Shown here one piece after another: positions 9,001-27,000 of a DNA stretch of 64,000 nucleotides. Numbering within the stretch: the stretch's first letter is position 1; each line of letters opens with the position of its first letter. Position numbers: made by a program. The stretch is taken from the NCBI GenBank assembly GCA_963663965.2, contig CAXXFK010000006.1, positions 128,001 through 192,000 on the forward strand, in the 5' to 3' direction. This DNA is from Sedimentisphaerales bacterium. GTDB lineage: Bacteria; Planctomycetota; Phycisphaerae; Sedimentisphaerales; SM23-30.

Positions 9001-12000
9001 GAACCAACCGTTTCCCGAATTGGGCAAGGCATTGAAGCGGACCAGTTTAGAGAACGGATTGATATTACGCGTGGATCCAAGCTGGTTTGCGGTGGCACCG
9101 GCCCTGATCGCGGAAGAATCCGATCTGGATGAGATGGTGGATCTGATCGACAAGAGTTTGAAGCAGGCGCTCGATCTTGTAAGACAAAGATCGTAACCAG
9201 CGAGTCCGTTTTGTCTCACTTTGTGATCAGCATTAACCGAAGGGGTCCCAAAGAGACTTATCTCTCTCCTGTGAGTGCCAAAATTAATGTCCCATAATTT
9301 CCATGAATACAGACACTTAAATAACGTTCGGATGAACCTAAATGCGGATTTCTTGCTGATTTGATAGATTTTGGGACTATGAAACAGCGGATATGGATCA
9401 CCTTGTGACGTATATGGCCTACTGCATCAATAAAGAACTCTATCAGGCGATTGAGTATCTCAAAACTCAGGTGGAAGTCTTGATTGAACAACAGGAGCAA
9501 CAGAACAAACGCATTCTGTTGACCAATCCTCAACGGACAAGAATGGCAGCTAAGGCTAAACAACTCAGTCGAAAGATGCTGGAACAATGTACGGTATTGT
9601 TTACCCCCGACACGGTGATGCGATGGTATCATAAACTGATCGCAGAAAAGTATGATGGCACTAAGCAGCGTGGCAAGCCGGGGCGACCACAAATCTGTTA
9701 GGACATTATCCAGCTGGTCATTCAAATGAAGCAGGAGAATCTCCGCTGGGGTTATCAGAAGATTACTGATCAGGTTGTGTACCTGGGTTATGAAATCAGT
9801 AAGTCCACAGTCAAAAATATTCTGTTTGAAAATGGTTTCGATCCTGAACCGGATTTAACCATCCGATCCGCCTGGCATGAATTTATCAGAAGTCATTGGG
9901 AGGTATTGGCCGCCTGCGACTTTTTCACGATGGAGCTTCTCGTGGACACTAAACTGGTCCGTTGCACGGTTTTCTTTGTGATAGAGCTGGCTTCCCGGAG
10001 AATCTGTTTTGCACCCATCAAGCTTCAGCCGGATGGCCCGTATATGCGTCAGGTGGCCCGGATTTTAACCGATAGTGATCAGGGCTTCCTGAATGGTAAA
10101 CGCTATCTAATCCATGATCGGGATCCGTTGTATGCCTCTGAGGGATTTGTTGAGCTCTTAAAAGGCTCAGGAGTCCAGACCCTGAAGTTGCCGGCCCGAA
10201 GTCCAGATTTAAATTGCTACTCGGAACGCTTCGTGAAATCCGTCAAATCCGAATGTTTAGATCACCTGCTATTGTCATCGGTTGAGCAACTGAAATATGT
10301 TCTGACCCAATATGAAAAATACTATCATCACGAGAGAATTCATCAATCATTGGGAAGAATCATTGATCCAAAGCATCCGGTGGATGGCACCTCAGAGATT
10401 CAGTGCATAGAGCGACTGGGTGGATTGCTGAAATCGTATCATCGATTGGCGGGTTAAGTCTTTATCATTTCGACAGATCCTCCCTAATTGCAGATAGAAT
10501 CTGCGCTCAGGGAATACATTTCAATGGCGGATCAATTCTAAGGTTATTTACTCGCCACTTTCACTCTTAATGGTCGAGTGAAAACGCTCCAATTTCGGCT
10601 GATTTTCTGAAAACTAACTGGTCGTATGAACATAAATTTAACTGCGGATGAATTTTTGCGCTGTAAGAGATGCGCCGGAAGTGGAATGTATTGGGAAGGG
10701 AAAGGCTCATAAGCAATATAAGTTTGGTTGTAAAGTCAGTGTCTGTTTTCAAGGAAATTATGGAATGTTAATTTTTGCGCCATAAGGCCTCATTTTAATC
10801 TTGCGGTATGCCTTTTGGGTGGAAAAAACATGTTTTCATTTTGTGCGGTCTCTACGCATCTGCTGAAACTTGGCAGGGGATTCGCTGGTAATTTTCTTGA
10901 AGATTCGGCTGAAGTAGTTCCGATTGGGAAAGCCTGTTGATAGCGCTATCTGGTCGATCGTTTCATTGCTGTGGAGCAGTAAATGGGATGCCTGTTTGAT
11001 GCGGATCTGGGTAACATAGGCTGCCGGTGAGGTTCCGAGGTGGTTTCTAAACATTTTTGAAAGCCCTTCGATACTCATGCAGGCTATTTCAGCCAGATGT
11101 GAATTGGACAGATTCCGGCCGGTGTTTCTTTCGATATACTGCAACAGTTCTTTAAGTATCCCTGGCCGGTCTTTCATCCAAAGGATGTCCGAATGGGCCA
11201 TGACCACATTCAGCAGGGCAAGGCTGTTACGGTAAATGGCATCTGTTGGCTCATAATTCGTGTTTTGGGCAATCAGTTTTTTGATGTCGCCAATCAGGGA
11301 TAATTCCGTTTTTGTCGGTTTAACTAGAATGGGCAGGGCCTGGGTTGGGCTGACCGAGAGGTTTACGCTGAATGATATCCAAAAGGTTGGAACCGGGTTG
11401 GCTCCAAGGCAATGAAAGAGCTGGTGGTCCGGGATCAGCATGATGTGGTCAGGAGTGATCTCATGGAACTCATCGCCAAAACTTACGCAATGGCCGGATT
11501 TTGAATTGTAATAGAGTCGCCAGAACGGACTGAATACGCTGGGGAAATTCCAGTCTTTGTTGTCGGGTAAAAAGCCGGCTTCATGTATCAGTAAACCGGT
11601 ATGGTCAAATTCTATTCCCAGGGGGTAATATTCTATGCCCACACCGGAAAAGGGTTGGCTGTACGCCCCAATATTGATTCGCGTAAGTGCAGAATAAGAC
11701 ATAAACTATAATATACCAGACATAGATTTTCGTGTCAAGATCTATTATACTTGATTCTGGAAAGGTTCGATGCCACGATTGGACCTGGCGTTTCACTTGA
11801 TTGAAAAATCCACAAATCTGGAGATTGAAATGAAGCGTTATGGAAGTGTTGTTCAGGTCAAAGCAGAAAAACTGGATGAGTATGTAAAACTGCACGCGGA
11901 TGTCTGGCCCGGAGTTCTCAGTATGATCAAAGCATGCCATATCCGGAACTATTCGATTTATCTGCGAAAACTCCCCGACGGCAAGTACTATTTATTCAGT

Positions 12001-24000: not shown

Positions 24001-27000
24001 AGGGTATCAAACTCCGGCTCGACACACAATATCCAGAAAATGGCCAGATCCAGCTGAGTCTGAATGCAGACAAACCCAGGCATGCAAGGCTTAATATACG
24101 CATCCCCTCCTGGCTTGAGGGTCGGGCGGAAGTGAAAATAAATGGCCAAACGGAAACTGCCGATGCTACTCCGGGCGCATTTCTATCACTGGCACGAACA
24201 TGGAAGGATGGGGATGTCGTCACCCTGGAGCTGCCGCTCGCGGTTCGTATCAGACCGAGTATGGATGATCCAACTGTGTTGTCATTGTTCTATGGCCCTG
24301 TCCTGATGGCGGGAAAACTTGGCCGGGAAGGCATGCCGACCACAGATATGGGAAGTCATATGGCACTTAATGATACTCCGCCCTGGGCAGTTCCGATGTT
24401 TGAGAGTGAAACGATGAACGATCTGAAACTGGACATTAAGCAGAATGCCAACACGCCGCTGCTGTTCAGGGCTAATATGATTGATCCCGCTGATCTGAAG
24501 CCGATGGCTGTCGAATTGGCACCATTATACCTTGTTCATCATCAACGATATGCGGTCTATTGGAAAGCAGTCAGCACAGAGCAGTAAAAAAAACGGCGTG
24601 CCGACTTGGGGATATGCGTCATCGAGAATAATAAATAAAATTATTCGAATATTGTCAGCTTGAGTAGCCAGGCATGTTGATCCCACAGGAACAATATTGG
24701 CGTAACGTCGTTAATAGAATGTACCCAATGGGTATGAAAATTCCCGATCGCTCGCAACAAAGTAATGACTCGTAAAAGACTTCATTCACGGCCCAGCGGG
24801 CATTTTCAATCGTAAACGGCATATATGACAGGCGTTGGCCCATGAATTTTGCGAGCTCATTGTTTTTAGCGCATGATGTAAGAAGTATTAATAATGACAG
24901 CGAAAACAAGGACTAAAAGCAATGGATATAAAAAAAGCAATCGAGTTAAATGAATCCTATCAAAAAATGATACCTATGCTGGTGCAGATGGGGTGCATAT
25001 CGGTTTGTCTCTGGGGGGCGGCCTTGGCCGATGTTGAGACAAGTAAGTCGCCACAAATCAGCGCGGGACTGGGGTATTATTGCATCCTGCCCAATAAAAT
25101 ACTGCTGGCCAGCATGATTCAGGCAGATAACTCCTCCGTCCTGACATGCAAATGGAGCCTATTGAGCGGTCCGGGTAGTGTTGTTTTTGAGAGGCCCAAT
25201 GATCCCATTACCTATGCCATGACAGCCGTGCCCGGCAAATATGTCTTTAAGATCACGGCGGGTATAGATCCGCATATCTCCGAGGCTCAAACAACGGTCA
25301 ATGTATATGCCCCGGGAGCATATACCGGCAATCCCATCCTGCCGGGCATGTTCCCGGATCCACATGTTTTATACGATAATGGCCAGTTTTACATTTATGC
25401 CACCTCCATGGAAAATTCCGATGGGGCTTACGGCCGTGCTTCAGTCTGGATTTCTGAAGATTTTATAAACTGGCAGATGAAACTGACCAACTGGCCAGTA
25501 TATGGAAAGTTTAACGGTGACATCTGGGCCCCGGACATCATTAAAAACGGTGACAGATATTATCAATTCATTACACGTTCAGGAGGATACGATACCTGGG
25601 TTGCCGTGGCCGAACATCCGGAAGGCCCCTGGAAGAATCTGAGAGAAAACAACACGCCGCTAGTCAGCGGCGGCGGGAATGCCGGCAGAATTGTCGCGGC
25701 CTACAACATGGATTCCAATCCATTTATTGATGATGACGGCCAAGCCTATATGTATTGGGGGTGGTCGGAGGCAATGGCGGCAAGGCTTACGCCGGATTTC
25801 AGGGATATCGATGGCCCGGTTGTCTTTTTGAAGGGAACGAAATGGTTGCCCGATGGCGGAAGTTTGCCGCAATGGCTGACAGTGGATCTTGGCGAGTCTG
25901 TGACGGTGACCCGAATCGTGACCCGCCCGGAATTTCGCCATGTAACCTATGGTTACAAGATAGAAATCTCCGACAATAACAAGGACTGGACTATCTGGGC
26001 AGATCGTACTGTCAATCCAGCCCGGAAGGCCGGCGATGGATATATCGATATCGCCGAAGGCAAGGGCCGGTATGTTCGGATCACCATGACTGCCTGTGAG
26101 GGCAACTGGGCGGGATTATATAGTTTTGATGTTTTTTCCGGTGACAAACTGGTTTCCCGGAACAAGACCACAATGGCTTCCTCGGTCCGGGGGAAGGGTT
26201 CGGAGCCGGCTAACGCGGTGGATGATTCGGACGGTCCGTATCTGTCCGATTTCGTGGAGGGGTCTTACCTGATTAAGCGTAATGGCATATATTACCTGCT
26301 CTACTCGACCGGCGCTTTGCATGACGGCAGCTATTCGGTGCATTACGCCATGGCCAAACACCCCTTGGGGCCGTTTATGACTCCGGCTGACAATATTGTG
26401 CTTGAAATGAATGAGGAAAAGACCACCAAGGGGCCGGGCCATAACTCTGTTTTGAAGTTTAACGACCAGTACTATATTGTTTATCATCAGCATAACCAGC
26501 CTCACGAGGAAGCCGGCGGGGTCTTTCGACAGACCTGCGCTGATAGAATGAAATTTAACGCGGACGGCACCATAAAAAAAGTTATTCCCACGCAAACAGG
26601 AGTCGGACCTTTGAATCCGCTGAAGGATCAGGGCGTTGATGTGGCTCGTGGCAAATATGCCCGGGCAACCGGTGTAAAAAACGGGTATTATTGTGCGGAA
26701 TACGCCCTTGATCACAACTTTGCCAGCAAATGGCGGGCTGCAGACAATACTTATCCGCAAACGCTAACGGTGGATTTAGGCGGAACTTATGATATTGGCC
26801 GCATTGAAACCAGCTTTGAATATCCCACTCTTTCCTATACGTATGCGATCGAGACTTCGCTGGAGGGTAAAAAATGGGATATCTATGCCGATAAAACCAT
26901 GGAATTCCCAATGGCAGTCAGTCCGCATATTGACACAGGTAGAGCGCAGGCAGCCTTTGTCAGAATTGTCATAAAAGGGTGTCAGCGGCCGGAAAACGGG

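Follow-up and report, generated by a model that had tools for sequence, protein, structure and literature searches.

The UroD superfamily includes O-, S- and halide demethylases (excerpts of PMC10418091 and PMC13222342), among them the MT-Is of aryl methyl ether O-demethylases, namely, OdmB and VdmB of Acetobacterium dehalogenans, MtvB of Moorella and MtoB of Methermicoccus. According to the excerpted text of PMC10418091, the absence of a third cysteine from the metal site goes with O- rather than S-methyltransferases, and CdmB, a near relative of the O-demethylases, is described in the accessible part of PMC13222342 as acting on another substrate class and not needing zinc. The use of one corrinoid carrier for both methionine synthesis and demethylation has a precedent in PMC12478193, as far as its accessible sections go. 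Glycan catabolism is blocked by methylated sugars, whose resistance has been reported from the gut and the sea; our literature search, which covered mainly freely accessible papers without their supplements, returned no description of corrinoid-dependent sugar demethylation.

Here we analyze a 64,000-nucleotide stretch of DNA (hereafter, the window) from a polysaccharide-degrading Sedimentisphaerales bacterium (genome G000; window position 1 is position 128,001 of contig CAXXFK010000006.1). We propose, with a probability of roughly 0.6, that a URO-D-superfamily protein encoded in the window is an MT-I that demethylates an O-methylated fucose- or rhamnose-type sugar and shares the corrinoid protein of a split methionine synthase.

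The window locus and its URO-D protein

The locus starts with a gene for an AraC-family regulator (10836..11702, minus strand; HTH_18 E 1.7e-22) that is divergent from a plus-strand operon encoding a RhaM-family mutarotase (11833..12168, longest ORF from 11770; PF05336 E 2e-29), a RhaT-family sugar/proton symporter (12217..13293; PF06379 E 4e-52) and the URO-D protein of about 398 amino acids, the candidate MT-I (13350..14545; PF01208 E 2.7e-21). These genes are followed, on the same strand, by those for a DUF5703 (GH95-like) glycosidase with a C-terminal F5/8 module (14701..17415), relatives of which carry Glyco_hydro_95_cat, and for members of the GH29 alpha-L-fucosidase (17436..19223; E 2e-64), GH106 alpha-L-rhamnosidase (19279..22548; E 7e-144) and GH127 (22572..24587; E 4e-85) families. 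The gene order is that given in the earlier note, apart from the DUF5703 gene, which had been omitted from the gap between the URO-D and GH29 genes. A weak sigma-70-like site lies upstream of the AraC gene (11710..11738, minus strand; 11/12 consensus match), in a region where 12 such sites were found against 12.9 expected, and the scan for promoters and terminators is at chance level.

The URO-D gene contains a one-base frame break behind position 13492, and 56 codons are missing from the start of the annotated ORF (13517-14545). This break is probably an assembly error, to judge from the aligned genes and reads. Of the 80 orthologues, 77 have a called start, and every one of these reads through the site. 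One contig of X1, a run of depth 2.9 that may come from the source sample, has one extra base at the break; X1 is the only informative run because X2 has no coverage of 13406-13526 and X3 contains little of the locus. Given the 77 intact orthologues and the extra base in X1, a pseudogene is unlikely.

Both the Pfam match, which is over the PF01208 cut-off, and the URO-D TIM-barrel fold of the structural model (pLDDT 91.6) place the window protein in the UroD superfamily. The Z scores are 26.6-27.7 to UroD and 25.6 to MtaA (the next fold scores 15.9), that is, a tie between the two; the first-ranked Foldseek match is MtaA (4AY7/4AY8; E 1.2e-11), and 4ay7 is also the closest PDB entry by sequence, as previously reported. 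Residues H282-x-C284, E306 and D364-H365, in the numbering of the orthologue L028, are invariant in 61/61 aligned orthologues. We take E306 to be the counterpart of an MtaA ligand; a literature search for the residue numbers of the MtaA ligands was without result. The third ligand position is occupied by Asp-His, not Cys, in the window subfamily (all 61 sequences), and the His at this site aligns with UroD too.

HemE identity is rejected: the window orthologue has no match to TIGR01464, none of the paralogues scores above 92.5 bits against the cut-off of 303, and the HemE motif RQAGR is absent from 17/17 sequences. Likewise, the window type is not an MtaA/CmuA or Mlp protein, given that it has no His-Cys-Cys site and that L028 scores 30.5 bits against the TIGR01463 cut-off of 235.4.

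URO-D genes and their sugar context

The PF01208 search of G000 yielded 18 matches that correspond to 16 genes, 15 of them over the cut-off, which bears out the 15 paralogues previously counted and adds one weaker gene. A second weak one, the 17th in all, is a distant URO-D-like gene detected with a local profile (C28:255067, E 1e-5), whose product type (431-433 aa; fold model pLDDT 43) stays a candidate member because its profile match to the paralogues has a probability of only 50.6%. One paralogue, C18:126237, is frame-broken, as is the window gene. The identity among the paralogues, previously put at 15-25%, reaches 30-39% in several pairs, and the metal motif counts (H-x-C-G in 8/15, H-x-D-G in 2/15) were reproduced. 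Searches of the ESM Atlas returned solely unnamed URO-D clusters. C20 is the sole paralogue of the 15 with a His-Cys-Cys site, and C7 is a URO-D-thioredoxin fusion adjoining CobW; by their scores with the MtaA/CmuA model TIGR01463 (166-176 bits, compared to at most 77 for the other paralogues), these two lean to the MtaA type.

An AraC regulator is found within two genes of 8/15 paralogues (genome background 2.3%) and a sugar transporter within two genes of 4/15, in agreement with the initial counts, and 3 of the 4 rhaM copies of G000 are within three genes of a URO-D-like gene. Two other counts had to be lowered: at least one sugar marker is near 12, not 13, of the 15 paralogues (C20, C7 and C21 have none), and a CAZyme, sulfatase or sugar dehydrogenase gene is within four genes of 10/15, compared to 7/20 random loci (Fisher p 0.09). 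The latter proximity thus mostly reflects the genome background, and we dropped it as support. These CAZyme counts, along with the three paralogues that lack sugar surroundings, are what one would expect if chance had produced the sugar context, the genome being rich in CAZymes, and if the paralogues had no tie to glycan use or were copies of the haem-pathway UroD. We consider this very improbable in view of the AraC enrichment, the conservation of the RhaM/RhaT linkage across phyla and the low hemE scores and missing motif; for the window subfamily, chance is largely refuted. As for the methyl-sugar role that had been assigned to the 15 paralogues, a link to sugars is supported for the window subfamily, C37, C40, C29 and C42, but C20, C7 and C21 do not fit.

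Orthologues of the window protein (80 loci, 64-88% identical) come from records labeled Planctomycetota, Verrucomicrobiota, Lentisphaerota, Bacteroidota, Chloroflexota and Hydrogenedentota. A RhaM- or RhaT-like neighbour is present at 57 of these loci, within 3 kb at 52. Considered separately, homologues occur at 53/80 loci for the mutarotase, 30/80 for the symporter, 21/80 for the DUF5703 protein, 19/80 for the GH29 cluster and 13/80 for the AraC regulator, whereas GH127 is found at two loci and GH106 at only one. The link to a monosaccharide mutarotase or importer points to a free sugar as the donor, and each URO-D subfamily has a transporter and a regulator of its own. We infer the sugar substrate of the window enzyme solely from such neighbouring genes.

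Association with a corrinoid carrier

G000 encodes a single methyltransferase-type corrinoid protein (C33:79075), whose best-scoring model is MtgC (197.5 bits, under the cut-off of 370). The other genes of the corrinoid pathway include RACo (C42:85639), a MetF-MeTr fusion (C20:149096), FTHFS (C33:295969) and a Hcy-methyltransferase/MTHFR fusion on C42; the corrinoid protein, activase and MT-II of a three-component O-demethylase are all represented. There is also an orphan MttB gene that does not adjoin the carrier gene. The presence of the carrier and RACo in G000 is not diagnostic and lends no support because both are near-universal in the order (53/61 and 56/61 genomes, respectively), including genomes without a URO-D candidate, and this also makes a co-occurrence test inside the order uninformative.

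The earlier note had no corrinoid gene next to any of the 15 paralogues in G000; none lies within four genes of them, and a corrinoid gene is within 8 kb at only 4/80 window-type loci (two intact, one cut by the locus end and one broken). A standalone corrinoid protein is encoded in 44 of the 50 genomes that hold an orthologue, with cap fragments in 3 of the other 6. In a sample of Bacteroidales, the carrier is present in 26/30 genomes with such URO-D enzymes versus 6/121 without (24/30 versus 4/121 after the removal of long-frame matches), although these counts are not independent, the samples including related genomes. Furthermore, a URO-D gene lies one or two genes from the corrinoid gene in 14/20 Bacteroidales carrier neighbourhoods. 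These adjoining URO-Ds include relatives of C40 (57%), C42 (64-67%), C29 (44-51%) and C7 (52-56%), and the same loci encode a sugar porter, UxaC and MFS, SSF and GH130, or GH78. Two loci are particularly rich: L087 combines MeTr, a formate channel, FTHFS, a corrinoid protein, RACo, AraC, URO-D, RhaT and RhaM, whereas L066 encodes RhaT, GH29, RhaM, URO-D, two corrinoid proteins, Hcy-methyltransferase, CobW and a MetH activation domain. A quickly built tree of the URO-D sequences collected for this analysis, with long branches, serves for a subfamily view only.

The predicted complex of L028 (88% identical to the window protein) with the G000 corrinoid protein scores 0.86 in three runs, compared to 0.00 for the best of three controls, none of them a true UroD; the high score may reflect likeness to solved corrinoid complexes. 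The mark for this score was reached by 116/157 solved complexes and 2/215 mismatched pairs. The contact agreement is at least 84% and the partner pLDDT at least 86, and the predicted interface takes in the carrier cap (58-64) and the B12 motifs (98-106, 149-152 and 177-178). Taken with the co-occurrence and the adjacency in other genomes, this prediction favors the earlier reading of the URO-D proteins as corrinoid-dependent methyltransferases.

The URO-D barrel could instead house a corrinoid-independent sugar enzyme (isomerase, epimerase, dehydratase or decarboxylase), for example, a substitute for L-rhamnose isomerase. The operon resembles rhaM-rhaT-X, neither RhaA nor RhaI was found in G000 (94.6% complete), the fold is equally near UroD and MtaA, no corrinoid gene is in view at 76/80 loci, and in G136, a nearly closed genome of the Bacteroidales, a search at E 1e-55 shows no standalone carrier to go with the orphan URO-D (32% identical to C37). 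We nevertheless regard such an enzyme as unlikely, given that URO-D and corrinoid genes strongly co-occur and lie side by side in Bacteroidales, and given the contrast between the complex and its controls. A replacement isomerase, specifically, is rejected because 44/50 orthologue-holding genomes retain RhaA or RhaI (RhaA in 7/8 related holders); the missing isomerase, previously raised as an objection, is indeed absent from G000 but carries little weight. The locus is not an L-rhamnose (rha) operon either: the RhaM-like protein (48.6 versus 99.6 bits for TIGR02625) and the RhaT-like protein (NCBIfam RhaT models) are both under the equivalog cut-offs, and RhaA and RhaI are missing. FucI-like and RhaD-like genes are present elsewhere in G000, both under their cut-offs.

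The co-occurrence, adjacency and complex evidence is all silent on the donor, which in a corrinoid-dependent enzyme could be a methyl glycoside or ester, an N- or S-methyl compound, methanol or a glycan aglycone, or else the enzyme could work in the methylating direction. The range of demethylases in the superfamily (PMC10418091 and PMC13222342, in excerpt) and the His-Cys-Cys site of C20 are compatible with such donors, but the mutarotase/importer linkage, the transporter and regulator retained by each subfamily and the lack of the third Cys in the window subfamily make them rather doubtful here.

Proposed pathway and known systems

Under the sugar O-demethylase reading, exported glycosidases of the families found here would release the methylated sugar, the RhaT-like symporter would import it, and the linked RhaM-like mutarotase would set the anomer. 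The URO-D-fold enzyme would hold the O-methylated 6-deoxy-L-hexose, probably through a metal site of the His/Cys/carboxylate type, and pass the methyl group to Co(I) of the corrinoid protein, which it is predicted to bind and which RACo would reactivate. From there, the methyl group could go to homocysteine via the Hcy-methyltransferase/MTHFR fusion or to tetrahydrofolate via the MetF-MeTr fusion and FTHFS, and the demethylated sugar would enter an isomerase/kinase/aldolase route. Some 10-12 of the 15 paralogues might be MT-Is for further methylated sugars, each controlled by a separate AraC/XylR regulator and dependent on the common corrinoid protein, with C20 and C7 as second-step or accessory subunits. 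More broadly, we see even odds that corrinoid-dependent sugar O-demethylases of the UroD fold have radiated in anaerobic glycan degraders of several phyla, one per methylated sugar and each with an AraC/XylR sensor. These enzymes would share one B12 carrier with methionine synthase, and the methyl groups would end up in methionine or else in methyl-H4folate and formate.

If true, the proposal would provide anaerobes with a B12-dependent, oxygen-free way to unblock methylated sugars and a function for a large family currently labeled 'uroporphyrinogen decarboxylase'. It would also link the use of glycans to the supply of B12 and methionine, add a so far overlooked source of one-carbon units in sediments, digesters and guts, and offer a source of regioselective sugar demethylases that work without oxygen. 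A direct test is available in the usual assay for the conversion of Co(I) to methyl-Co(III).

The OdmB-type MT-Is, likened here to the window protein from descriptions of OdmB, VdmB and MtvB rather than from sequences, operate together with an activase, an H4folate MT-II and a corrinoid protein that is monomeric; G000 encodes each of these partners, and L087 has them in a cluster. O-demethylase systems also have several MT-I paralogues for different substrates (accessible part of PMC8630106). Unlike those systems, the present one has sugar importer, mutarotase and glycosidase neighbours, a predicted alkyl rather than aryl ether donor, hosts in Planctomycetota, Verrucomicrobiota and Bacteroidota, and mostly unlinked partner genes. 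MtaA, the methylcobamide:CoM methyltransferase, has the fold and the H-x-C motif in common with the window protein but is only 16-18% identical to it, and its third Cys is replaced by Asp-His. The Mlps, in the excerpted description of PMC10418091, combine His-Cys-Cys with a sulfur/selenium context, whereas His-Cys-Cys in G000 is confined to C20. MtgBCD of Ruegeria pomeroyi, as portrayed in the available text of PMC12478193, uses the same corrinoid protein and MT-II for a split methionine synthase and for a demethylase, as proposed here, but MtgB is an MttB-family protein acting on glycine betaine whereas the window MT-I is UroD-family and sugar-linked. In the glycan degrader B. thetaiotaomicron, BT_0340/0342/0343 include corrinoid protein and methyltransferase genes, labeled methylamine methyltransferase in the accessible part of PMC8941943 and likened here by description only. 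The cytochrome P450 6-O-methyl-D-galactose demethylases (excerpts of PMC6292453) perform a job like the one proposed, the removal of a methyl ether that blocks catabolism, but they require O2, yield formaldehyde and have an unrelated fold.

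The window locus and its URO-D subfamily

The window covers positions 128001-192000 of contig C6. Its URO-D-family gene (13350-14545) belongs to a gene run that also comprises a RhaM-like gene (11833-12168) and a RhaT-like gene (12217-13293) and that diverges from an AraC gene on the minus strand (10836-11702). Next comes a DUF5703/GH95-like gene (14701-17415), followed by GH29, GH106 and GH127 genes and then GH43 and GH27. The URO-D gene is disrupted in the assembly (7.24 Mb, 94.6% complete): the frame from the ATG at 13350 reads through FFWGG and then drifts, and FVKRW is taken up by the downstream frame. 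All 77 orthologues with a called start (n=80) have an uninterrupted frame, and one contig of sequencing run X1, possibly the source sample, carries one extra base behind 13492 (depth 2.9; a second run, X2, is without coverage there). Comparable breaks occur in further genes of this assembly (C18:126237, C26:73621-75572, the C33 GH38 gene at L124:4281-9176, and C28:253664-254786), consistent with single-base assembly errors. We treat the window gene as intact, encoding about 398 aa. The paired transposase and integrase genes of an IS element (rve_3 and DDE_3, 9393-10457) lie immediately past the AraC gene.

A GTDB scan yielded 280 relatives, and the best 80 of these (64-88% identical) were kept; close orthologues carry the labels Sedimentisphaerales, Phycisphaerae or Pirellulales, which makes a planctomycete source likely. 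The linkage to importer, mutarotase and regulator genes is observed directly. A RhaM-like gene is present in 53 of the 80 loci (one a short match), a RhaT-like gene in 30 and either in 57; one or the other lies within 3 kb in 52/80. Contig ends cut many of the loci; of the 42 that have 4 kb on each side, 33 have one of the two genes. GH29 genes turn up repeatedly (19 loci), as do DUF5703/GH95-like ones (21), but not GH106 (1) or GH127 (2); a second URO-D gene, often of the paralogous C37 type (55-68%), occurs in 23 loci. Because the RhaM-like and RhaT-like proteins both score under equivalog cut-offs, the sugar can be assigned no closer than "fucose or rhamnose type"; going by the neighbours, we lean towards fucose. 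Hydrazine-synthase-alpha-type proteins lie near the URO-D orthologue in 7 of these best 80 loci; in the window itself, 31284-41014 holds a beta-propeller/di-haem cytochrome-like gene and encodes two such proteins of 1,250 aa, in which the hydrazine-synthase-alpha domain occupies the middle.

The model of L028, an orthologue 88% identical to the window protein, is a URO-D barrel (pLDDT 91.6) for which UroD and MtaA tie as nearest folds. Residues H282, C284, E184, E187, D243, E306, D364 and H365 are invariant in 61 aligned orthologues, and the N-termini, inspected by eye, show no signal peptide. According to PMC10418091, S-methyltransferases of the UroD superfamily have a His-Cys-Cys site, and one or both Cys are replaced in the O-methyltransferases; the window-type site, judged from the alignment, fits the latter pattern, but the His at its third position also aligns with UroD. 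In four loci (L076:10570-12425, L080:4369-5655, L087:15356-17025 and L096:639-1826), a fatty-acid-hydroxylase-type di-iron gene, which could be an O2-dependent counterpart, sits beside URO-D/RhaM genes, accompanied in two of them by an unannotated 270-aa gene.

RhaA and RhaI were not found in the source genome (94.6% complete), and RhaA is present in 17 of 24 family members; a FucI-like gene adjoins two GH29-like genes, and RhaD-like aldolases are also encoded. Replacement of the rhamnose isomerase by the URO-D protein is ruled out, since 44 of 50 genomes with a window-type orthologue keep RhaA (40) or RhaI (4 more); RhaA is also found in 7/8 related holders.

Paralogues and sugar-gene neighbourhoods

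PF01208 matches 16 genes of the source genome, 15 of them above the cut-off. A local profile adds C28:255067-256362, a 431-aa protein that is faintly URO-D-like (E 1e-5; hhalign 50.6%), lies in the order XylR-X-SSF-rhaM, and gave no Pfam or NCBIfam match and no confident fold in structure prediction; its relatives occur in 8/80 window-type loci (L033, L036, L039, L045-L047, L051, L107). No URO-D paralogue exceeds any NCBIfam cut-off. The HemE motif RQAGR is absent from all 5,226 gene calls, and the window protein fails the tests for both MtaA and HemE identity.

Counted on our own gene calls (5,226 genes) with 31 HTH_18 matches, 7 of the 15 paralogues have an AraC gene no more than one gene away, 8 no more than two and 10 no more than four, versus 1.2%, 2.3% and 4.6% of all genes. 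The earlier note's counts within two genes are thereby reproduced for AraC-type regulators (8/15) and also for sugar transporters (4/15 versus 1/20 random loci). Its figure of 11/15 for a CAZyme, sulfatase or sugar-dehydrogenase domain within four genes became 10/15, not clear of the 7/20 in random loci (Fisher p 0.09; two control loci with BNR_4 or GxGYxYP matches only were scored negative). The real signal is thus the regulator and transporter, not CAZyme density.

Some sugar marker accompanies 12 of the 15 paralogues (13 had been claimed), C20, C7 and C21 having none. C20 and C7 alone have Cys at the third metal-ligand position (His in 10/15) and reach 166 and 176 bits with TIGR01463 (remaining paralogues <=77); for these two, a role in the second step or as an accessory subunit is more likely than one as first, substrate-binding methyltransferase (MT-I). 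In six of the Bacteroidales neighbourhoods retrieved, relatives of the C7 type (52-56% identical) adjoin genes for the carrier, a standalone methyltransferase-type corrinoid protein, and CobW, Hcy-MT or the reactivase RACo is often present too. The proposal that all fifteen paralogues are methyl-sugar demethylases is therefore overstated, although the family is real and both corrinoid- and sugar-linked. At C7:4973-7507 lies a URO-D-thioredoxin fusion without the first His, adjoined by a CobW-like GTPase.

The corrinoid link

The source genome encodes one carrier (C33:79075), one RACo (on C42, adjoining an Hcy-methyltransferase/MTHFR fusion), a MetF-MeTr fusion (C20:149096) and FTHFS. The carrier occurs in 53/61 and RACo in 56/61 related genomes, among them genomes without a URO-D candidate, which bears out the caveat that both belong to a housekeeping split methionine synthase. 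By analogy with the single carrier that serves methionine synthesis and betaine demethylation (PMC12478193), this role would be compatible with sharing by demethylases. A 901-aa Cas9-like protein (HNH_4, RuvC_III, Cas9_a; L124:15209-17911) is encoded some 5 kb away from the C33 carrier gene. Sharing would likewise suit an orphan MttB-family gene with no carrier nearby (C6:125698-127119), which just precedes the window; its run continues to window positions 300-3910 (octopine-dehydrogenase-like, M20 peptidase, Zn-dehydrogenase, metallo-hydrolase and SSF transporter), with no adjoining corrinoid gene.

Outside this order, the co-occurrence test is informative. Of the 80 holders, 50 genomes were covered; 44 of these have a standalone carrier, and cap fragments occur in 3 of the remaining 6. 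In the order to which G088 (labelled Bacteroidaceae) belongs, represented by 151 genomes, the carrier was found in 26/30 with a URO-D match versus 6/121 without, or 24/30 versus 4/121 once long-frame matches are dropped, in counts where kin are not independent and the URO-D profile includes MtaA-leaning types. Adjacency is observed as well: in 14 of 20 carrier neighbourhoods fetched (of 32), a URO-D gene lies 1-2 genes away; the carrier ORF is uncalled in 1, and 5 have none, 2 of them with MttB instead, in genomes without URO-D. The adjoining URO-Ds include close relatives of the C40, C42, C29 and C7 types, in orders such as sugar porter-carrier-URO-D (L222), SSF-GH130-URO-D-carrier-Hcy-MT (L208) and GH78-AraC-URO-D-carrier (L225). 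The order UxaC-MFS-URO-D-carrier (L223, genome G169) is suggestive of methyl-glucuronate as the C29-type donor, and GH31-URO-D-SSF-carrier-URO-D, accompanied by GH141 and a rhamnosidase-like gene (L220, G256), of a methyl sugar derived from pectin. Window-type loci have a carrier gene within 8 kb in 4/80, FTHFS in 2/80 and Hcy-MT in 3/80, and two (L087, L066) hold the entire pathway in a single cluster; the near-closed genome G136, with an orphan URO-D and no standalone carrier, is a counter-case.

The window-type protein is also predicted to bind the carrier. Three runs of the modelled complex between L028 and the source-genome carrier gave a score of 0.86, with contacts agreeing to at least 84% and a pLDDT of at least 86 for the partner, against 0.00 for the best of three controls, UroD not among them; 116/157 solved and 2/215 mismatched pairs reach the mark for this score. 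In the model, the carrier would make contact through its cap, its B12 motifs facing the barrel, much as in the CdmBC model of PMC13222342. The score may stem from a resemblance to corrinoid complexes of known structure; in PDB searches, MtaA alone was among the matches listed.

We place the probability that the window type is a corrinoid-dependent MT-I at about 0.8, and consider an O-methyl sugar the probable donor overall, with less assurance. The methyl group would pass from the sugar ether to Co(I) of the carrier and then to homocysteine or H4folate, most paralogues presumably each acting on a particular sugar. A conserved methyltransferase family with corrinoid and sugar links is well supported, its O-methyl-sugar substrate being putative.

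Relation to known systems

PMC6292453 covers sugar demethylation by P450 and terms methylated sugars recalcitrant, and BT_0340/0342/0343 are given as methylamine-type corrinoid genes (PMC8941943). The literature searches aimed at the function, which covered titles, the openings of abstracts and the papers cited here, yielded no description of corrinoid-dependent sugar demethylation, annotations of which could be hidden in supplements. In its proposed action, the window type would be like the aryl-ether O-demethylase MT-Is described in PMC8630106 and PMC13222342, membership of their clade not being implied.
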